From an uncultured Christensenellaceae bacterium (GTDB lineage: Bacteria; Bacillota; Clostridia; Christensenellales; UBA3700), in assembly GCA_944381325.1 (NCBI GenBank), contig CALWKS010000004.1, forward strand, positions 85,189 through 149,188: DNA of 64,000 bases. Direction: 5' to 3'. Under the pieces are notes generated by a model. That model was given only the letters and a program-made list of their open reading frames with translations. It was not told the DNA's origin and did not search any database. A program made the position numbers and the translations under genes. Below, piece after piece: positions 10 through 58,675 of the stretch; the stretch's first letter is position 1; the number at the start of each line of letters is the position of its first letter.

Positions 10-633
10 TTATTTGGAATACAACTCGACGATAAGATGCTCTTCGATCTTCTGCTCCACGTCGCTTCTTTCGGGCAGTTCTACAACTTTACCGGTGAGG
101 GTTGCGTTGTCGAACTCGAGCCACTTCGGAAGACCGATGGAATTAGCTGCCTTGAGCTCTTCAAAAATCTTCTTGTCCTTCTTGTTTTCCTTAACTGCGA
201 TAACGTCGCCCTTCTTGATGAGGTAAGAAGGAATGTTTACGCTTTCGCCGTTGACGGTGATGAGACCGTGGTTGACGATCTGTCTTGCCTGAGCTCTGCT
301 TGAAGCGAGACTGAGACGGAAAACTACGTTGTCGAGTCTTCTTTCGAGAAGAATGAGCATATTGTCACCGGTGATACCTCTCATGGTTTCAGCCTTGTCG
401 AAGTAACCCTTGAACTGCTTCTCGCAAAGTCCGTAGATTCTCTTGGTTTTCTGTTTTTCTCTCAGCTGGATAGAATAGCCGGAAGCCTTCTTTCTAGCTG
501 TGCCGTGCTGACCGGGAGCGGTAGGACGCTTAGCAAGCGGGCACTTCTCAGAAACGCACTTTGCGCCTTTGAGGAACAACTTTACGCCCTCGCGTCTGCA
601 CTGACGACAATCGGGTCCTGTATATTTAGCCAT
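10..633 (-). CDS. rpsD: 30S ribosomal protein S4 (uS4), zinc-ribbon form
   Basis: 207 aa ORF; N-terminal Cys4 cluster (CRQC...CVSEKC) and S4 RNA-binding region; follows rpsM-rpsK as in the alpha operon. Confidence 0.96.
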
Positions 634-46119: not shown

Positions 46120-47664
46120 ATGGAATTCAATCAACTTATCCGCTTAAAAAGAAAAGAACTGAACAAAACTCAACAGGATATCGCATCAGAATGCAATATC
46201 TCTTTTCAATCTGTAGGGAAATGGGAGCGAGGAGACAGTCTTCCGACTGCAGACAAACTGCCCGCTCTTTCGCGTGCGCTTAATGTAAGCGTGGGCTTGT
46301 TGATCACAGGCAAAGACGACGGGGCATCTCCGCTTTCATCTGACTTCGACACAAATAAATTTTGCACCTTTCTTGCATCTTTGCGCGCAAGATGCAAACT
46401 GACACAAAGCGAAGTTGCGAAACAGCTTTACGTCAATCAAAGCACAGTCGCAAAATGGGAAAACGGAAAACTACTCCCTGACCTGAATGCGCTCAAAGAT
46501 CTTTGCGTGCTTTACGCTGTCACGCCAACAGAACTCTTCTCTCTGAAAGCCGATATGTCCACTCACGTCGTTACGGGAACGGTAACAAACGCCAAAACGA
46601 CAAGAATATGGAGATCGCTCAAGCGATGGAAAACTGCAACCGCGTTGATAAGCTGTTTTCTTATCGCATTCATTGTACTCAGCACGGTGATGATCACTCA
46701 GAACACTTCTCTTCTTGATTACAAAAGCAAATACGAAGCGCAGGTGGCTGAAAATAAAGACGCTATGGCAAAATACAACGACCTTTTGTCCAGATACGAA
46801 GATATGTCGTCTGATTACGAAGATGTCGCGGCGAAATATGAAGACGTTGCATCCAAATACGAAGACGTAGCGTCAAAATACGAAGATCTGGTAAAAGAAA
46901 CAAACACTATTTATACGCTGACACTAATCGATGACTTTGCAGAAAACAAGACAACAACGAGCGACATCGCCAACAACGATTACTTCACTCTTTCCTCTCC
47001 CCTTAAGAGCGGCTACGTCTTCAAAGGCTGGAACACCGCTGCGGACGGATCAGGAGAATATCTGTACGGCAATATAAAAATCACATCTGACAAGACAATT
47101 TACGCGATCTGGCAACCGATCTGGCTTGACGAACGCGTTTACGGAGAAAGCGCTGCAAAAATATCTGATCTGTTCTTGAAGATAGAAGCTGAATTTGAAA
47201 AACTGTTCGGCTATTACGAATATTTCCGCACGCTTTTCTGCTCCCCTTACGATGAGTTTTCTTTATTCCAGCAATTCGATACCGCATCTTCGATATACAA
47301 GTGCTTTGACAAGACAACTCTTTATGAAGACGAAGAATTTAACGTAAGATATTATTCCCTGTATATCTGCGCTTATCTGAGCGAAGCCGCAGAAATAGCC
47401 GAGGGAATACCTGAATTGGCAGAACTTGCCGATACACTTATTCAAGCTCAGGCTGCCGCTCAGAAGCTTTCGCTTTACGCATATGCGTCTTACTATTACG
47501 ACGATACGCAGGAATGGGGAGACGAATACGTGTCCTACGTCTATAAAAATTATTTTGACGACTATGCCCCATTCATAAAGATTATCTGCGATTCAATGGG
47601 CTATACAGGGGTGAAAGAAAGCCCTTACGACGCGTTCGTAAAGGCTTATTCTGTCAACAGCTGA
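46120..47664 (+). CDS. dual XRE-HTH membrane-spanning regulator with heptad-repeat coiled coil and Listeria/Bacteroides-type (Flg_new-like) repeat
   Basis: 514 aa; two HTH_3-like modules (LTQQDIASECNIS...KWERG; LTQSEVAKQLYVN...KWENG); TM helix ALISCFLIAFIVLSTVMI; six heptads of the KYEDVAS type; GYVFKGWNTAADGSG...IYAIW. Confidence 0.8.
   Translation: MEFNQLIRLKRKELNKTQQDIASECNISFQSVGKWERGDSLPTADKLPALSRALNVSVGLLITGKDDGASPLSSDFDTNKFCTFLASLRARCKLTQSEVAKQLYVNQSTVAKWENGKLLPDLNALKDLCVLYAVTPTELFSLKADMSTHVVTGTVTNAKTTRIWRSLKRWKTATALISCFLIAFIVLSTVMITQNTSLLDYKSKYEAQVAENKDAMAKYNDLLSRYEDMSSDYEDVAAKYEDVASKYEDVASKYEDLVKETNTIYTLTLIDDFAENKTTTSDIANNDYFTLSSPLKSGYVFKGWNTAADGSGEYLYGNIKITSDKTIYAIWQPIWLDERVYGESAAKISDLFLKIEAEFEKLFGYYEYFRTLFCSPYDEFSLFQQFDTASSIYKCFDKTTLYEDEEFNVRYYSLYICAYLSEAAEIAEGIPELAELADTLIQAQAAAQKLSLYAYASYYYDDTQEWGDEYVSYVYKNYFDDYAPFIKIICDSMGYTGVKESPYDAFVKAYSVNS
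46771..46896 (+). repeat. six tandem 21-bp (heptad) repeats inside the CDS
   Basis: KYNDLLS/RYEDMSS/DYEDVAA/KYEDVAS/KYEDVAS/KYEDLVK; nucleotide copies are degenerate at synonymous sites. Confidence 0.8.
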
Positions 47665-47872
47665 TATCTTTAAGGACATAGCGTGCGGTCTTCTTTTCGT
47701 AGACCAGTTCTTTCGGAATGTTGTATTCGATCAGAAATATTTTTATTTCGGCTATAGCGCGGCAGAACGTCCGCTGAGATATCTCGTTGAAAGACATTGC
47801 TTTTTCTTTTTGAAAATAGCCTTGAGTACACAGTAGCCAGATAAGATACAGTGCGGTTATTGTTTTATTCAT
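47654..47872 (-). pseudogene. 72-aa winged-helix (HTH_11/YafY N-terminal-like) fragment, possibly a truncated regulator
   Basis: MNKTITALYLIWLL...FNEISQRTFCRAIAEIKIFLIEYNIP resembles only the N-terminal HTH of DeoR/WYL-type regulators; ORF ends inside the 3' end of the convergent gene (11-nt overlap). Confidence 0.4.
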
Positions 47873-48297
47873 TTTCTTCCTTTGAAGAATTGCGCAATCC
47901 GATTTTATTCCCGGTGATTTCATTGTAGCATCGCACTGTTAAACCCGATATACCCGATACGGAATAAACGCGGTTGTATTTATTCCTTATCGCGCAATCG
48001 TTGCGCAAAAACGCAAAGCTTTCCCCTGAGTACTTGTTTGCAATCAACAGAAACCGAGGTTCTCCGCGCGATAAAGTATATGAAAAATCAAAAAAGCAAG
48101 CCTGCCTCTTCCCCTGTAAACTGCTATTCGAATATAGCAAAATCACTCTGCCAACATCTGGCAATCTTTTATTTGACTTAAAATAATATAAGTTTTGTTA
48201 AAGTTTTACAGACCTGTTGTTAAGCATCTGAATACGATTCTAATTGTATGTATATCAGATGATCGTAATTAGATTATTTTAAATGAAAAGAAATAAC

Positions 48298-48327
48298 AAA
48301 ACGCAACCCTTTTACGGATTGCGTTTT
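48298..48327. terminator. terminator hairpin, copy A
   Basis: AAAACGCAACC-cttttac-GGATTGCGTTTT; identical to copy B. Confidence 0.6.
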
Positions 48328-48340
48328 GTTATGTGTTATC

Positions 48341-48470
48341 TGGTGACTTCTCGGGGGAATCGCCTTTCAGCGATTGCGGTTACGGTATCCGCGTAGCGGA
48401 CAATCGCGTGCAGCCGGTCGCGGATGTGAGCCTTGCGAGCATACGCACTGGGGTGAGAGTCCCTTCTTCC
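48341..48470 (-). ncRNA. unclassified GC-rich structured RNA candidate ending in a tRNA-like ...GATTCCCCCGAGAAGTCACCA 3' end
   Basis: no plausible ORF; bracketed by two identical terminators; 7-bp stem with GAAA tetraloop (48358..48375); mutually exclusive pairings GCGATTG/CAATCGC/GCGATT; 3' 20 nt homologous to the tRNA-Glu 3' end. Confidence 0.3.
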
Positions 48471-48482
48471 TTCTTACATAAC

Positions 48483-48512
48483 AAAACGCAACCCTTTTAC
48501 GGATTGCGTTTT
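48483..48512. terminator. terminator hairpin, copy B (downstream of tRNA-Glu)
   Basis: same hairpin as copy A, 13 nt after the tRNA CCA end. Confidence 0.65.
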
Positions 48513-48525
48513 GTTGTGTGTTATC

Positions 48526-48600
48526 TGGTGACTCTGTGGGGAATCGAACCCCAGTAGCAGCCGTGAGAGGGCTGAGTCTTAACCGCTGGACCACAGAGCC
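48526..48600 (-). tRNA. tRNA-Glu (anticodon CUC), CCA encoded
   Basis: hand-folded cloverleaf: acceptor GGCTCTG/CAGAGTC, 3-bp D stem, anticodon stem CAGCC/GGCTG with loop CTCTCAC, T arm TGGGG-TTCGATT-CCCCA, discriminator A plus CCA. Confidence 0.9.
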
Positions 48601-48608
48601 AAAGTATT

Positions 48609-48614
48609 ATTATA
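48609..48614 (-). promoter_or_regulatory. -10 TATAAT element 8 nt upstream of the tRNA 5' end
   Basis: read on minus strand; no convincing -35 at 17-nt spacing. Confidence 0.35.
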
Positions 48615-48712
48615 GTAGCATAAGAGTTTTATTTTGTCTATTATTTTTTTGCCAAATTGAAAATTTTTTAATGATTAACCTTTTTATTTCAATCGATACC
48701 GATAAAAACACG

Positions 48713-53020: not shown

Positions 53021-56000
53021 TCAGGTCGTTATAACGCCGTCTACGGTGATCATGAGCTGTTTTTCGTCAAGAGCGGTTTCAATCGCTTTGTCAATCCATT
53101 CTGCAACAGCCTTTGTCTTCTTGCCGTAGTTGAACAGAGCGACAACTTCTTTCACAACTCCGTCGCGCGTCATGCCTATGTTGGTCTCTATCGCGCACTT
53201 GACTGCGGCAAGTATCTCCTCAGGATAGATCTTCGTAATGTCGCGCTTTATCTTTTCGTCTGAAGGACGGAACGTTTCAACCGGCTTATCGACGTAGAAC
53301 ACCTTTCCGTCAACTTCTTTTCTGAAGCCGTCGAACGCGCCGATATATTCTGTCAGCTGAGCTATCGCCTTCTTTGCCGTGCCTGGAATGTTGTACATCG
53401 CGGTCAGCTTATCGAGAAGATATCTTTCCTCTATCGGAGACTCTCTGTCTATGATAGCGCGGATGCGTTCTTTTATCTTGTCCTCGCTGGCAATATCCAT
53501 TACAAAATCCGTACCGGGCTTTGCCAGAGGTTTTACCGTGAACGACTTATACGGCGTGCGATACTTGGACATAGCCTCTTTGACAGCCTTTTTGCTGAGC
53601 ACTTTCTTCTGAGTAAGCGCGGTTACGTAATCCTTGATCTTGGTAATCTCGCGGCGCGGATTATTGTAATAATTGACCGTCCACAGCTGATATACATTCC
53701 AGCCAAGCTTACGCAATATCTTTGTCTGCATCGTAACTCTGTCTTTTACGCCGCGAAGTTTACAGCTGTTTTCGCTGTCTGCAAGAATAGCCAGAACGTA
53801 TCTGTTCTTATTCTTGGGATCGACAACCGCAACGTCGATTTTGAAGTCAGAAACACCAAGATTGTAATCGCATACGATGCCTCTGTCCTTGAGTTCGTTT
53901 GCAAGAAGTTCTCCTATGCCGCAACCTCTCTCAGCAATATCCTTTGAGTTGATCGCCAGCATATCTCTGCCTCTTTCAGCATATTCAAGGAATGCCTTAA
54001 GTCCTTCAACGCCCTTGCTGTTGGTGCGCGAAAGGTCTATCATATGTCCTGAAATGCCGCTGAATACGACCATCTCGTTTCTTGCTCTGGTTACCGCAAC
54101 GTTTAGACGCTTGTAACCGCCGCTCTGGTTGATAGGACCGAAGTTGAGAGACAGCTTTCCGTTCTTGTCAGGAGCATAGCCCACGCTGAACAATATCAGG
54201 TCTCTTTCGTCACCCTGTACGTTTTCAAGGTTTTTGACGAATACGGGCTCTTCTCTGTCGTACGCCACAGCGTCAAGTCCGTTCTCGTGAATACGCTTTG
54301 TAAGTTCGTTTTCAATATAATTCTGCTGAGCGATATTGAAAGTAACGATACCTATGCTGTACTTGCGTTCATTGGGGTCTTTAAGCCTTCTGATGACTTC
54401 AGACACCAGTTCATCGCCCTCTTTTTTATTGCACTTCTGTCCGCCTCTTTCGTAAATACCGTCGACATAGCGGAACGAAACCTTGCTGTTGAGCTCATTG
54501 GGCGACGGGAACGTGAGCAGCGTGTTGCCGTAATACATCGCGTTGGAGAATGCGATAAGACTTTCGTGCAATGAGCGGTAGTGCCAGAGAAGATGATTTT
54601 CAGGCATACCCAGCGCAAGACAGTCGTCCAGAATGCTGTCAAGGTCTTCCACTTCGTAATGCTCGTCGTCCTTGTAATCCACGTTGAAGAACGTAGTAGG
54701 CGGCAACTGTTTTGGGTCGCCGACGATTATGACGTTCTTGCCGCGCGCTATACAGCCGACAGCTTTGCAGGTGGGCAACTGAGACGCTTCGTCGAATATG
54801 ACGAGGTCGAACTTATCCATGTCTATATCCAAAAACTGAGTAACAGACGTCGGGCTCATCAGCATACACGGGCAACACGTTGCCAATATATGCGGGATCT
54901 TGGCAAACAGTCCGCGAAGCGTCGTACCCTTCATATTGGATTTTTCAGCTCTTAAAAGGATAACTCTTTCAAGATTGTGCTCTCCTTCTGTATCGGGCTT
55001 GGGCACGTTTGCCACAAGTTTTTCGTAAAGCAGCTTTCTTGTCTGACGCTCGTACTCTTCGCTGAGCTCCTTAAAACGCGCCGCCACCTCTTCCAGGTTG
55101 AGACCCGAGAACTGGCAAAGCACGTCGTCAAGAAGCAGTTCGCTTCTGATAAAGTTGTAATAAACGCATTTCTTAAAGCAACTGAGCACTTCCATCGCAG
55201 AAATTTCGCCGTCGGCAAGCGGCTCGAGAACAAAGTCAAGACCGCTCTTTCTGCACTTTTCAACCATTTCCTGATATTTGCACCAGTTGGGTATAAATCC
55301 GAAGTTTTTCTGCAGACTTCCTACGTATTCCACCTTTGCGTTGAGGTCGTTGCCGCCGCTGTAACCGCCAGTATTGAAGACGCGGCAGAATGCCGCTTCG
55401 GCACGCGCGCAACTCTCGTACGCATACATATAGAATTTCGTATAGCTGTTTACGCCGTACTTGGTGAGTTTAGCACAGCTGTCGTCAAAGACGTCGCCGT
55501 TGAATTCTGCATAAAGCTGTTTGCCGTTTTCGTAAAGCGCAGATATCTGATTTGCGTAATCGTCAAGCGCGACTCTGTCTCCGCTCTTGATGCCGAATAT
55601 CTCGGAAAGCTCCTGAGAGCGGCGCTCGTATACGTCGCGCGTCTGCTCGCATTTGAGCAGATATTCAGCAAACACGGTGCGTTCTCTCTTGTCCAGTTCA
55701 GGAGGAGTAACTCTCTTGAGCGCGCGTGAAAATACTCCCGTCTTGGCCGCGTCCGCGATTTCTCCCATATCGAGACCTGACGGATAATTGCCGTAACGCG
55801 AAGTGAATTCAGCCACCATGCTGTCAGACTTGGAGCGTGCTTCGATATAAGAATCGACTATTCCGCGCGGATTATGTCCCTTTGCCGCCGCCGCAAAATA
55901 CTTTCTTACGCTTTCGCTTTCAAGCGCCTTGCATATTCTGTAAAGCGCCTTGAGCTTGGGCGTAGTCAGCGCTACGGTGCGCATATTGAACAAAGGCGTA

Positions 56001-58675
56001 AGCATACGCGCATACTGTCTGAGATGTCTGAGTTCCTGCTCGAACACTTCGAGGATCGCAGAGCCTTCTTCGTTCCACTTCTCATCGAAAGTAAAACTTC
56101 CTATATGTCTAAAAGGCGATTTTTCTATATCTCCGCACTCTTTTGCGCGCAGAGCAAGCTCTGTGAGTATTTCTATATATTTCTGGAAAGTGGATTCAAC
56201 GAGTTTTTCATAGAACATACTGTCTATGTGCAAGCAGTCTCTCGAATCCTTGTTCTCGAAATAACCCATGATCGCCTGATACAGCGAAACTCCGAGGTAT
56301 CTCTTGCTGTGCATTGCATCGAGTTCTTTCTGCAATTTATCCACGCAGGTGTTGATTTCCTGCAGTTTTTCGTCTATATCGCCCGTCTCTTTCTGTTCTG
56401 TCAGAGACATTGTTTTGACTATCTGAGAAAGAACAGCGTTTTTATTCGTCTTGTTGCTGTGAAGCTCTAAGCAGAAATCTCCCAGTCCTATCTGCTGCAG
56501 TCTGTTGTGTACGACAGAGAGCGCCGCCATCTTTTCTGCGACGAACAGCACGCGACGACCGCGCACGATATTGTTGGCGATAATGTTGGTAATTGTCTGT
56601 GATTTACCCGTTCCCGGAGGTCCGTGAAGGACGAAGCTCTTTGACAAGCTGTCATAAATAGCGCTGTACTGAGACGAGTCTGCGGATATCGGCAGGTACA
56701 TTCTCTCCTCTGCCGTATATGCCTCGTCGCTGCTTCTCGACGACAGATCGAACGCACCCTCGGGAAGTTCAAGTTTATTATTGATGAGAGAACTTATGAT
56801 CGGATGTTCTCTGAATCGGTCTGACTTATACTTGACGTCATACCACAGCTGATAGTTGGCAAAAGAAAGACTTGCGATAAACACGTTGGGATAAACTTCC
56901 CAGCCCTTTCTGCCTACCACCTCTTTTTTAAGACGCGCGATTACCGAAAGCACGTTCTGCTGAGTATCCAGCGCGACTTCGCTGAGTCCTCTTATATCCT
57001 GATTGAATTCCTGATACAAAAATTCAAGAAGCGTACTGTTTAAGCGCACGTCTTCGGTATTCACATCGACGGTATAAACCGGAGCTGCAACGCCTTTTTT
57101 GCTGAGCGTTACCGGGCAAAGCAGAAGCGGAGCAAACTTGTCGTCAGCATTCTCGTTCTCTTTCCATTTCAGGAAGCCTGCCGCGACGTACAACGTGGAC
57201 GTGCCCGTTTCTTCCTGAATGGAAGTCTCTTTCTTTATAAGCCTCTGAACGGTAGCGTCATGGTTTTTCTGATCGTAAACCGTCAGAAGACGCTTGTTTT
57301 TGTATTCGTAAGAAACATAATCCACAAAGGGCTTGAGGTAAGAACTTCTCTCGAATCCTTCGTTGAGCTTGTCCGTGTTCTGCACGCCGTCAGACGGACG
57401 AGGATCGAGAGTAAACGACTTGTTTTCTGTCATCGCGCCAATGAAGTCTTCAAGCGAAGGCACGAGAAGTTTTACCGCCGTACGCGAAACTTTGAAGTTG
57501 AGAAGCGCGTTGCGCATATCCATATCGAGAAGCCTGCGCTCCCACTGCGTAACGCGGTTGACCTCTTTCTGACCGCCTATCTCGCCCTTGTATTCCTTAA
57601 ACTGCTTGGGCGCGACGCTCGTCATATAATCAGAACTCTGAACGAGGTCGTATCCCTTAGGACCGTACACTCTTTCAGGAAGCGGGAAAACGTGCATTAT
57701 GCGCGCACGCTTTATATCTACGGCAAAATCGACTCCGTATGCGCGTTTTAGCGCTGTAACGGCATTCTTTTCTGCCCTTTCGAAAGCGACTCCGTCAAAA
57801 AGGTCGCTTATGCATATCATAGTAAATTCGTTGACGCCTTTTTCTGCTTTCTTCACGAGAGCGTCTACGTCGTCCGCAACTGCGTCCTGAGAACATTCGT
57901 CGCTGAGGAATACGCCTACATACCACTTTCCTGCCGCTCTGCAAATAACGGCGTTCTGACCGTTAGCCTCTATCAGCGAAGCGTAAACCAGCGCCATCTC
58001 AAGCGGTGTGGCAAGCTTTGACGCAAACAGATCCTTATGAGACTGAATGACTTCGCTGTCTTCCTGCTTGGGTTCTACGTTGTCGAAGTGCTCGTCGCCT
58101 ATAGTGCTGTAACATGCGGCAAAATAGTTTCTGACTCCGTTGCGATTGCCGTTATATCCTGCAACGTGAGACAATTTCCAGTCCTTTAGTTTATTGTTGA
58201 CCTGCGTAATAAGCGTATTTATCTGAGCGGTGCGTCTGACGAACGTAGCAAGAACTTCGGGATTAGCGCCGAAATTGCATTTGTCAAACGCCGTAACCGT
58301 AACTTTGGCAACCGCCGAATCTACGACTCTGTCGCCGATAAGCGCCTCAACCGTGATTTCCCCTTCTATATCGCTGTCAACAGCGACCATATACAGCGGC
58401 GAAAGTTTTGCCGTTGTCTCGAATTTCGCGGTAGTGCGCCTTGGCAATACGTTCTGCTCTATGGTGCAAGGCAACAAAAAGTCGGGCTGAGAGGATATTC
58501 TGACCTGCAGATTTTCAATATCCGCTCCGCTCGTATTCTTAACGTACAGTCTTTTTATCGGACTGGTATCATTCTGAATCTGATAATAGCTGACCGCACT
58601 GCTGCTCTCAAGAGTTATTTCAACCTCTTTGCGTTCAGAGACCTCAGCTGTAATTGTCTGATTTTCCTGATCCAT
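53021..58675 (-). CDS. 1884-aa protein: DUF4011-like region, SF1 Upf1/DNA2-like helicase, endonuclease-like fold, DUF3320-like C-terminus
   Basis: Walker A GPPGTGKS (56600..56623); Walker B FDEASQ (DEAS codons 54782..54793); IIVGDPKQLPPT; VQGDERD; VAVTRAR; then FKIDVAVVD...LAILADSE..K; uninterrupted ORF. Confidence 0.85.
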   Translation of the reverse strand: MDQENQTITAEVSERKEVEITLESSSAVSYYQIQNDTSPIKRLYVKNTSGADIENLQVRISSQPDFLLPCTIEQNVLPRRTTAKFETTAKLSPLYMVAVDSDIEGEITVEALIGDRVVDSAVAKVTVTAFDKCNFGANPEVLATFVRRTAQINTLITQVNNKLKDWKLSHVAGYNGNRNGVRNYFAACYSTIGDEHFDNVEPKQEDSEVIQSHKDLFASKLATPLEMALVYASLIEANGQNAVICRAAGKWYVGVFLSDECSQDAVADDVDALVKKAEKGVNEFTMICISDLFDGVAFERAEKNAVTALKRAYGVDFAVDIKRARIMHVFPLPERVYGPKGYDLVQSSDYMTSVAPKQFKEYKGEIGGQKEVNRVTQWERRLLDMDMRNALLNFKVSRTAVKLLVPSLEDFIGAMTENKSFTLDPRPSDGVQNTDKLNEGFERSSYLKPFVDYVSYEYKNKRLLTVYDQKNHDATVQRLIKKETSIQEETGTSTLYVAAGFLKWKENENADDKFAPLLLCPVTLSKKGVAAPVYTVDVNTEDVRLNSTLLEFLYQEFNQDIRGLSEVALDTQQNVLSVIARLKKEVVGRKGWEVYPNVFIASLSFANYQLWYDVKYKSDRFREHPIISSLINNKLELPEGAFDLSSRSSDEAYTAEERMYLPISADSSQYSAIYDSLSKSFVLHGPPGTGKSQTITNIIANNIVRGRRVLFVAEKMAALSVVHNRLQQIGLGDFCLELHSNKTNKNAVLSQIVKTMSLTEQKETGDIDEKLQEINTCVDKLQKELDAMHSKRYLGVSLYQAIMGYFENKDSRDCLHIDSMFYEKLVESTFQKYIEILTELALRAKECGDIEKSPFRHIGSFTFDEKWNEEGSAILEVFEQELRHLRQYARMLTPLFNMRTVALTTPKLKALYRICKALESESVRKYFAAAAKGHNPRGIVDSYIEARSKSDSMVAEFTSRYGNYPSGLDMGEIADAAKTGVFSRALKRVTPPELDKRERTVFAEYLLKCEQTRDVYERRSQELSEIFGIKSGDRVALDDYANQISALYENGKQLYAEFNGDVFDDSCAKLTKYGVNSYTKFYMYAYESCARAEAAFCRVFNTGGYSGGNDLNAKVEYVGSLQKNFGFIPNWCKYQEMVEKCRKSGLDFVLEPLADGEISAMEVLSCFKKCVYYNFIRSELLLDDVLCQFSGLNLEEVAARFKELSEEYERQTRKLLYEKLVANVPKPDTEGEHNLERVILLRAEKSNMKGTTLRGLFAKIPHILATCCPCMLMSPTSVTQFLDIDMDKFDLVIFDEASQLPTCKAVGCIARGKNVIIVGDPKQLPPTTFFNVDYKDDEHYEVEDLDSILDDCLALGMPENHLLWHYRSLHESLIAFSNAMYYGNTLLTFPSPNELNSKVSFRYVDGIYERGGQKCNKKEGDELVSEVIRRLKDPNERKYSIGIVTFNIAQQNYIENELTKRIHENGLDAVAYDREEPVFVKNLENVQGDERDLILFSVGYAPDKNGKLSLNFGPINQSGGYKRLNVAVTRARNEMVVFSGISGHMIDLSRTNSKGVEGLKAFLEYAERGRDMLAINSKDIAERGCGIGELLANELKDRGIVCDYNLGVSDFKIDVAVVDPKNKNRYVLAILADSENSCKLRGVKDRVTMQTKILRKLGWNVYQLWTVNYYNNPRREITKIKDYVTALTQKKVLSKKAVKEAMSKYRTPYKSFTVKPLAKPGTDFVMDIASEDKIKERIRAIIDRESPIEERYLLDKLTAMYNIPGTAKKAIAQLTEYIGAFDGFRKEVDGKVFYVDKPVETFRPSDEKIKRDITKIYPEEILAAVKCAIETNIGMTRDGVVKEVVALFNYGKKTKAVAEWIDKAIETALDEKQLMITVDGVITT

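Follow-up and report, generated by a model that had tools for sequence, protein, structure and literature searches.

A putative structured small RNA element with a tRNA-derived 3′ end behind tRNA-Glu(CUC) in Christensenellaceae

In a 64,000-nt stretch of contig CALWKS010000004.1 from an uncultured Christensenellaceae bacterium (hereafter the window), the last 21 nt of a tRNA-Glu(CUC) gene and the terminator that follows it reappear 185 bp downstream, on the far side of a GC-rich segment. Such a direct repeat of the tRNA 3′ end cannot be a matter of chance, and the question is what the segment between the two copies represents. The original prediction, made for this locus from the sequence alone, had offered two readings, namely the scar of an attachment (att) site left by a nearly deleted integrative element, or a second, co-transcribed, tRNA-derived small RNA. 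In this work, the insert was treated together with the repeated tRNA 3′ end as a single unit, designated element E, and this unit was compared with related loci, which are numbered with the prefix L. The comparison suggests, with moderate confidence, that E is a lineage-restricted gene of a structured small RNA that arose from the duplicated 3′ end of tRNA-Glu. It would probably be transcribed by read-through from the tRNA promoter, be closed by a terminator of its own and have been multiplied into arrays by unequal recombination.

Element E and its conservation behind tRNA-Glu(CUC)

Read on the minus strand, the locus consists of a promoter, tRNA-Glu(CUC), a first terminator (T1), the GC-rich segment, a diverged copy of the tRNA 3′ end and a second terminator (T2); the coordinates are collected in Table 1. 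The duplication of the tRNA 3′ end together with the terminator was confirmed using ARAGORN, Rfam and a repeat search, and the latter also recovered the single difference that had been described within the first 56 nt (repeat core at 48293–48348 and 48478–48533). The repeat continues as a degraded block of 14 nt (48349–48362 and 48533–48546), in which the minus strand reads CGATTCCCCACAGA-GTCACCA in the tRNA and CGATTCCCCCGAGAAGTCACCA in the copy. This block is indeed diverged, as had been noted before; however, GAGAAGTCACCA is not a product of random decay, and the RAGAAGTCACCA tail recurs in other lineages. Both repeat copies include the intrinsic-terminator hairpin AACAAAACGCAATCC/GGGTTGCGTTTTGTT followed by a U-tract, T1 and T2 having the same hairpin, and the T2 copy was flagged by a terminator scan. 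The GC content is 59% in the segment between the repeats (48363–48477) and 62% in the body of E versus 31% in the flanks and 48% in the whole window, which agrees with the earlier description of the insert as richer in GC than its surroundings.

A covariance model (R1) was built from 15 distinct copies of E. It assigned 130 bits (E = 1e-30) to the window copy and up to 128–152 bits to the homologues. With the filters off, R1 found exactly one copy in the 64-kb window, and in about 200 kb of related loci copies were found only behind tRNA-Glu(CUC). A scan of one genome per species with the 27 nt of the tRNA 3′ end yielded eight loci, all of them in metagenome-assembled genomes of Christensenellaceae, with an identical tRNA-Glu(CUC) sequence and the same gene neighbourhood. 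Further loci were fetched through homologues of the neighbouring 89-aa and 197-aa proteins, which added three more lineages (L024, L028–L031 and L033) and many strain variants; an exact lookup of the 197-aa neighbour protein of the window returned no record. In total, E is located directly downstream of the identical tRNA in at least six lineages of Christensenellaceae. It is carried by the window; L002, L008, L019, L035 and L036; L005 and L014–L018 (with 0 copies in L017); L024; L028–L031; and L033. The loci L001, L003, L006 and L034 have the tRNA and lack E.

In L002, L005 and L008, a lineage-specific terminator stands behind the tRNA; next come a sequence 79–81% identical to the insert of the window, ending in a tRNA-like manner (...TCCCC-N-AGA(A)GTCACCA), and another terminator. 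E is always co-oriented with the tRNA, including those loci where the block of tRNA and E is inverted relative to the flanking genes. A hairpin with a T-run was found behind every copy of E in the relatives, the terminator sequence being specific to the lineage. The variants of E track the host lineages and are not exchanged between them. A metagenome scan with the pattern TGCACGCGATTGTC-N18-26-CAATCGC returned five loci, which were regarded as chance matches because all of them lie in unrelated coding sequence.

The body of E is 79–89% identical between lineages. In a forced global alignment, the terminator spacers between the tRNA and E show 5–54% identity for the most distant lineages, which makes them effectively unalignable; for the lineages L005, L024 and L028, which are closely related, the value is 67–88%. 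The promoter region of the tRNA (the upstream 60 nt) is 82–100% identical between lineages. Within E, conservation is highest near the junction of the helices described below and lowest at the helix tips. The earlier statement that the insert has no plausible open reading frame held: the overlapping frames are mechanical only, and indels of 1 nt among the homologues break every reading frame of E. A six-frame pseudo-protein query, aimed at spurious frames annotated over E in metagenomes, gave no scoring match.

Predicted fold and tRNA-derived end of E

Judging from the alignment of homologues (A4), the predicted fold of E is a three-way junction of the helices P1, P2 and P3–P4, with compensatory changes in every helix (Table 1). 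Paired bases occupy 91% of the cells in the helices of A4. Changes on both sides of a pair were observed in 11 cells, against at most one when the partners were slid by 1–3 columns, and the observed covariation score was reached by none of 500 shuffles. Pair 6:106 of P1 is U-A in the group of L002 and L008. The loop of P2 comprises 13 nt in general and 5 nt in L033, which retains the stems and has a short loop in place of P4 and the internal strand. The minimum free energy (MFE) folds of five other copies from four other lineages recovered P1 and, in several cases, P2 and P3, with z-scores of −1.6 to −2.7. Neutral decay, which the original prediction had named as the outcome in relatives that would speak against an RNA, was thus not what the relatives display, since compensatory substitutions were seen instead. 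The sense of E was assigned from its strict co-orientation with the tRNA and the terminators and from its tRNA-like 3′ end.

The 3′ end of E deserves separate consideration. The 3′ strand of P1 lies within the putative att repeat, and therefore the repeat belongs to the structure. When R1 was applied to the T-arm and 3′ end of the tRNA itself, the match was weak (14.6 bits) and consisted of P1 and the tail, the body being deleted. The tail of E has no conserved pairing partner and occurs in two types: an E-specific type, RAGAAGUCACCA, in the window, L014, L016, L028 and L031, and a type identical to the tRNA, ACAGAGUCACCA, in other copies. Both types were found at any position of an array, which points to recurrent recombination or gene conversion between the 3′ ends of the tRNA and of E.

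Table 1. Features of the tRNA-Glu(CUC)/E locus in the window and helices in alignment A4
Feature	Position	Strand	Details
Promoter, sigma-70-like	48612–48640	minus	TAGACA-17-TACTAT with TG extension; promoter scan
tRNA-Glu(CUC), CCA encoded	48526–48600	minus	ARAGORN; Rfam RF00005, 55.9 bits
Spacer and first intrinsic terminator T1, 61 nt	48465–48525	minus	arms 48476–48494 / 48501–48519, then U-tract GUUUUGUUAU
Element E, 124 nt	48341–48464	minus	three-way-junction body and tRNA-like 3′ tail; covariance model R1
P1 5′ strand (aGGGACUC)	48457–48464	minus	pairs with 48354–48361
P2 arm	48414–48451	minus	P2a CCAG/CYGG, P2b NCG/CGN′, conserved UC/UC internal loop, P2c UGC/GCA, variable loop
P3 (GCGAUUG/CAAUCGC) around P4 hairpin (UCCGC-UAC-GCGGA) and 11-nt internal strand	48370–48407	minus	
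P1 3′ strand GAUUCCCC	48354–48361	minus	homologous to 3′ half of tRNA T-loop and 3′ strand of T-stem
Tail of E CGAGAAGUCACCA, single-stranded, 12–13 nt	48341–48353	minus	diverged 3′ strand of tRNA acceptor and ACCA
Spacer and second intrinsic terminator T2	48285–48340	minus	17-bp extended stem, tail UUCUUUUC
Direct-repeat copy 1	48478–48546		tRNA T-loop to CCA, spacer, terminator; repeat search
Direct-repeat copy 2	48293–48362		P1 3′ strand of E, tail, spacer, terminator; repeat search
Helix P1	A4 columns 1–8 with 104–111		pair 6:106 A-U to U-A
Helix P2	A4 columns 14–26 with 38–51		conserved internal loop; 19:45 = G-C, A-U, C-G, U-A; 26:38 = C-G or U-A
Helix P3	A4 columns 58–64 with 89–95		pair 64:89 G-C or U-A (U-A in L033)
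Helix P4	A4 columns 65–69 with 73–77		pair 67:75 C-G or U-A

Several other foldings were considered. The stem with a GAAA cap that had been pointed out earlier (P5) does exist (48369–48375 / 48358–48364), but it is not the conserved fold. P5 was rejected as the main fold: it competes with P1 and P3, and it can be at best an alternative conformer because a substitution in the L002 group that preserves P1 breaks it. Likewise, the three segments GCGATTG, CAATCGC and GCGATT, which had been proposed to form mutually exclusive helices, are all present, and the comparative data favour the pairing GCGATTG:CAATCGC (helix P3) with the closing P1 over the GAAA hairpin. An acceptor-like stem of the window copy, formed in its MFE fold (RNAfold) by GACUCUC and GAGAAGUC before ACCA, was discarded as lineage-specific because L028 has the same tail without a complementary 5′ strand and other lineages pair the 5′ end with GAUUCCCC. 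The possible "pseudoknot" CCAG:CUGG is nested and extends P2; it has no covariation support, and its pair 16:49 is A×C in 10 of 15 sequences. The first ~22 nt of E resemble a second degenerate copy of the T-arm (GGGG-loop-CCCC-AG) too weakly for such an origin to be claimed. Finally, the heptamer CTCTCAC, which is identical to the anticodon loop of the tRNA and had been mentioned as a possible coincidence, was attributed to chance because it is not conserved; the relatives carry TTCTCAC or AATCAAC.

Array dynamics and gene neighbourhood

The number of tandem E copies varies among strains with the same flanks, namely 0 in L017, 1 in L005 and L014, 2 in L015 and L018, 3 in L016 and 4 in L008, and the tails are mosaic. 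The repeat unit is 167–185 bp long. L017 keeps only a terminator and the first 10 nt of E, a remnant that is the expected product of recombination between flanking repeats, and L004 has lost an intact copy that its relative L028 retains. From these comparisons, the repeats of 60–90 nt appear to drive the change of copy number by recombination. Contigs end inside or beside the tRNA/E array in L019–L023, L025–L027 and L033, and the scaffold of L015 has an N-gap there. The copy numbers are probably underestimated, because repeats of 167–185 bp probably break short-read assemblies.

Truncated and interrupted copies were also observed. Half-elements at L004:7418–7569, L028:4390–4541 and L030:4317–4468 consist of the 5′ half of E up to GCACGCGA fused to CCGGGTGTGACGCGGGGC..., an unrelated sequence. 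These decayed copies lie further along the array and reach ~50 bits with the E model. The tRNA-distal array end is an insertion hot spot: AT-rich foreign DNA adjoins a shortened 5′ remnant of E there at L014:980–1576, where it carries a DUF1643 gene, and at L038:1420–1707. L001 is one of the loci without E. The terminator that immediately follows its tRNA-Glu(CUC) gene (L001:2498–2545) shares 13 identical nt, ACGCGATTGTCCG, with the P3/P4 segment of E (window 48394–48406, minus strand); the probability of such a match by chance is roughly 1e-4. It may have been left behind by an E copy that has since been lost, or it may indicate that the P3/P4 arm originated as a terminator hairpin. L025 belongs to the organism most closely related to that of the window, the 197-aa neighbour being 98% identical. 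Downstream of its tRNA (L025:3709–3802), the sequence becomes different immediately after ACCAGAT, and the contig then breaks off; thus, even near-identical strains vary at this site.

In several lineages, the promoter, the tRNA and E have been inverted as one block with respect to the genes on either side (window 48285–48700 versus L004, L005, L014–L018, L024 and L028). The orientation of the tRNA varies also without E, as in L001 and L003 versus L006 and L034, and palindromic bidirectional terminators flank the promoter–tRNA–E block.

Among the neighbouring genes of the window, an 89-aa HTH-like protein (47654–47923, minus strand; ...SFNEISQRTFCRAIAEIK...) is 85–93% identical across lineages, has no Pfam family and forms only five clusters in a set of 5.8 billion proteins. 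All loci in which it was seen also have E and a 514-aa XRE/Flg_new protein, and its gene has a long conserved 5′ leader with hairpins. In a protein of 1884 aa (53021–58675, minus strand), DUF4011 is combined with helicase domains (AAA_11/AAA_12) and a nuclease domain (MTES_1575). The protein resembles a defence-type helicase-nuclease, and its identity to the counterparts in L002 and L006 is 93–94%.

Possible roles, alternative explanations and related systems

The second of the two initial readings, a co-oriented tRNA-derived small RNA, fits the comparative evidence, that is, the same tRNA in at least six lineages, a fold with compensatory changes and a terminator in every case, although the fold differs from the GAAA hairpin on which attention had been focused. 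Under the small RNA reading, E would be transcribed from the strong tRNA promoter through T1. Such read-through is inferred because no promoter of E's own is visible: the promoter scan of the window revealed no promoter-like site upstream of the tRNA/E unit besides that of the tRNA, and none was found in the terminator/U-tract region by the scan of the window or by eye in L002, L005 and L033. The RNA would end at its own terminator or be trimmed back to the tRNA-like CCA. It would then accumulate as a stable small RNA that binds a protein, a ligand or another RNA, and the invariant C-rich strand ACCCCAG or the UGCAC junction strand may be candidates for trans-acting sites. The block of tRNA 3′ end and terminator would be both a product and a substrate of unequal homologous recombination or gene conversion, which would expand and contract the array (0–4 copies) and swap the tRNA-type and E-type tails.

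A number of observations weigh against a small RNA gene. T1 is a good terminator, and read-through across it is assumed. The window copy has a C×U mismatch at pair 6:106 of P1, and its own fold is no better than that of a shuffled sequence (z = −0.1 to −0.8). Only one or two pairs covary in each helix, and the counts of G·U versus A·C do not fix the strand. The phylogenetic depth is small, comprising ~6 lineages of one family. Moreover, E is dispensable: it is missing from close relatives (L017; L004 as against L028), and distal copies seem degraded in some cases (L018b; CCA replaced by CAA).

A selfish origin was considered unlikely. In this case, the terminator and E would form a non-autonomous mini-cassette, its tRNA-like end serving as an att mimic or a homology patch, which is mobilised in trans by an integrase or by host recombination, and the conservation would reflect the element's own propagation and not a benefit to the host. 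The layout, with partial tRNA 3′ ends between the units, resembles tandem integrations at an att site in the tRNA T-loop, as in tycheposons and other tRNA-targeting elements, whose att-site duplications include tandem arrays and degenerate remnants (10.1101/2020.12.28.424599). As in att-site duplications of tRNA genes, the direct repeats of the tRNA 3′ end start in the T-loop, the units are stacked behind one tRNA, and the element varies in copy number and is present or absent among close strains; the insertion hot spot at the distal array end (L014 and L038) would fit as well. Unlike such duplications, the E locus has no integrase, cargo gene or gene remnant, its repeat runs through the host terminator, and the conserved RNA-like fold is closed with the repeat itself. 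A unit of 167–185 bp is also very small for a double-stranded DNA circle. In addition, E was found at this one locus only (64-kb window and ~200 kb of loci), its variants follow the host lineages, and its internal helices covary, which recombinase sites do not need.

No integrase or transposase was found within 3–8 kb in the window or in the related loci (~25). The Pfam scan of the neighbouring proteins of the window revealed no recombinases, the hits being TerB-like, GH43 enzymes, XRE/HTH and membrane proteins. The related loci were judged by precomputed Pfam hits, among which no recombinase families are listed, many genes there having no recorded hit. No coding remnant was detected in the 115-nt insert. 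Four scans of viral contigs (with the pattern of the E 3′ end, the E core, the tRNA 3′ end and the E tail) and a BLAST search against phages and plasmids gave no match, so neither E nor the tRNA 3′ end could be linked to phages, plasmids or viruses.

Still more doubtful, and to be regarded as speculation, is the possibility that E is a tRNA-parasitic non-autonomous cassette that needs its own RNA for copying, either by reverse copying of a CCA-ended read-through transcript or with its tRNA-like end serving a trans-acting recombinase as an att mimic, and that is reinserted at tRNA-Glu(CUC), which would give rise to the arrays of terminator and E. Alternatively, E might be a mimic of the tRNA 3′ end that titrates a factor binding tRNA-Glu.

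It is improbable that E is a cis-regulatory RNA that switches between P1 with P3 and P5 and in this way controls terminator read-through into a downstream gene. The helices P3 and P1 are mutually exclusive with P5, the change of pair 96:101 from U·G to U-A is consistent with P5, a terminator follows each copy, the junction nucleotides are highly conserved, and the window, L002 and L008 have the gene of the 89-aa HTH-like protein downstream on the same strand. However, in L005, L014–L018, L024 and L028 the inverted block points towards the 3′ end of a convergent gene. A conserved co-oriented downstream gene, as expected for a riboswitch, is therefore missing, which argues against regulation in cis. 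T2 lies about 370 nt away from the 89-aa gene, with that gene's leader in between, the lineage-specific terminator stems find no pairing partner in E, and P5 of the L002 group is weakened by the substitution that preserves P1. A type III toxin–antitoxin system does not match the locus either: the units of 167–185 nt each have a terminator, no ToxN/AbiEii-like gene is adjacent, and the orientation relative to the neighbours is not conserved.

An even less plausible explanation is that the helices act in single-stranded DNA as a site of recombination, replication or inversion, with the RNA being irrelevant. Covariation cannot separate RNA from single-stranded DNA, the wobble counts leave the strand unfixed, and the tRNA block was inverted repeatedly between lineages; against this stand the strict orientation of E relative to the tRNA and the terminators, its tRNA-like 3′ end, a three-way junction with conserved unpaired strands that is typical of RNA, and the lack of a nearby HUH or integron-type recombinase gene. 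The first of the initial readings, in which a nearly deleted integrative element left the insert behind between attL and attR as neutral DNA, is hardly credible. In its favour, the insert is flanked by direct repeats of the tRNA 3′ end (48293–48362 and 48478–48546), and the relatives L001, L003, L006 and L034 have the tRNA without the insert. However, conservation and covariation already contradict this reading: the constrained insert is 79–89% conserved, with compensatory substitutions, amid unalignable intergenic DNA and is amplified to four copies. It is neither foreign nor neutral, it comes without integrase genes or fragments, gene fragments or matches to phages, plasmids, viruses or other mobile elements, and the repeat has a host terminator inside it.

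To place the putative small RNA among known families, Rfam 15 (4227 families) was searched using cmscan at E-values up to 10 with the window region, the L008 array and L028, and only terminator-like chance matches were obtained. ARAGORN found only the genuine tRNA and no tmRNA, and at the same E-value limit Rfam gave no tRNA match on 48341–48464; the only match of the tmRNA_permuted model (12 bits) sits on the T-arm of the tRNA. These results are in line with the earlier failure to fit the insert to a tRNA or tmRNA fold. The Rfam models of tRNA, tmRNA and mascRNA did not match E, their weak hits falling on the tRNA only.

The tRNA-like domain of tmRNA and the 3′ element of MALAT1 (mascRNA) are tRNA-like 3′ modules of larger RNAs. 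Like them, E would be a larger RNA with a tRNA-derived end (...ACCA) that could recruit the maturation or protection of tRNA 3′ ends. Unlike them, it lacks an acceptor stem, its tail being unpaired in most lineages, as well as a T-loop and a tag reading frame. Orphan structured RNA motifs of the Breaker/Weinberg type come from the comparative genomics of GC-rich intergenic regions. E shares with them a GC-rich island in an AT-rich intergenic region, a covarying multi-stem junction and a narrow taxonomic range, and differs in being partly tRNA-derived and tandemly repeated with one terminator per copy. In Escherichia coli, 3′ETS-leuZ is a sponge RNA made from a tRNA trailer. It is mentioned in two reviews (PMC8166272 and PMC8383071), and a further example is "tRNA-Other", a pseudo-tRNA of Bacillus cereus (PMC3399842). 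Both resemble the putative E RNA in being non-coding RNAs within or just after a tRNA unit, with tRNA-derived sequence and the context of a tRNA promoter and terminator; E would share their non-translational role. In contrast to them, E is neither a simple spacer fragment nor a cloverleaf. It has its own body of ~110 nt with a three-way junction, retains only the 3′ half of the tRNA T-loop/T-stem and the 3′ strand of the acceptor, and has its own terminator and tandem amplification. Literature searches revealed no description of such an element. Thus, on the grounds of its architecture, which was found neither in Rfam nor in the literature searches, E is best described as a putative new family among the tRNA-linked or tRNA-derived structured non-coding RNAs.

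For genome analysis, this locus means that direct repeats of a tRNA 3′ end alone are insufficient evidence of an integrase event, which matters for the prediction of genomic island and prophage borders. Repeats of 60–90 nt would lead to rapid changes of copy number (0–4) between strains, and the E arrays coincide with the ends of metagenome contigs and so probably break assemblies. The locus may also serve as a clean natural example of how duplications of tRNA 3′ ends seed new RNA genes. If E is expressed, it would represent a new class of structured small RNA in Christensenellaceae, a prominent health-associated gut family, and one of unusual origin, with a closing helix and a 3′ end recruited from the 3′ part of a tRNA gene and with transcription riding on the tRNA promoter.

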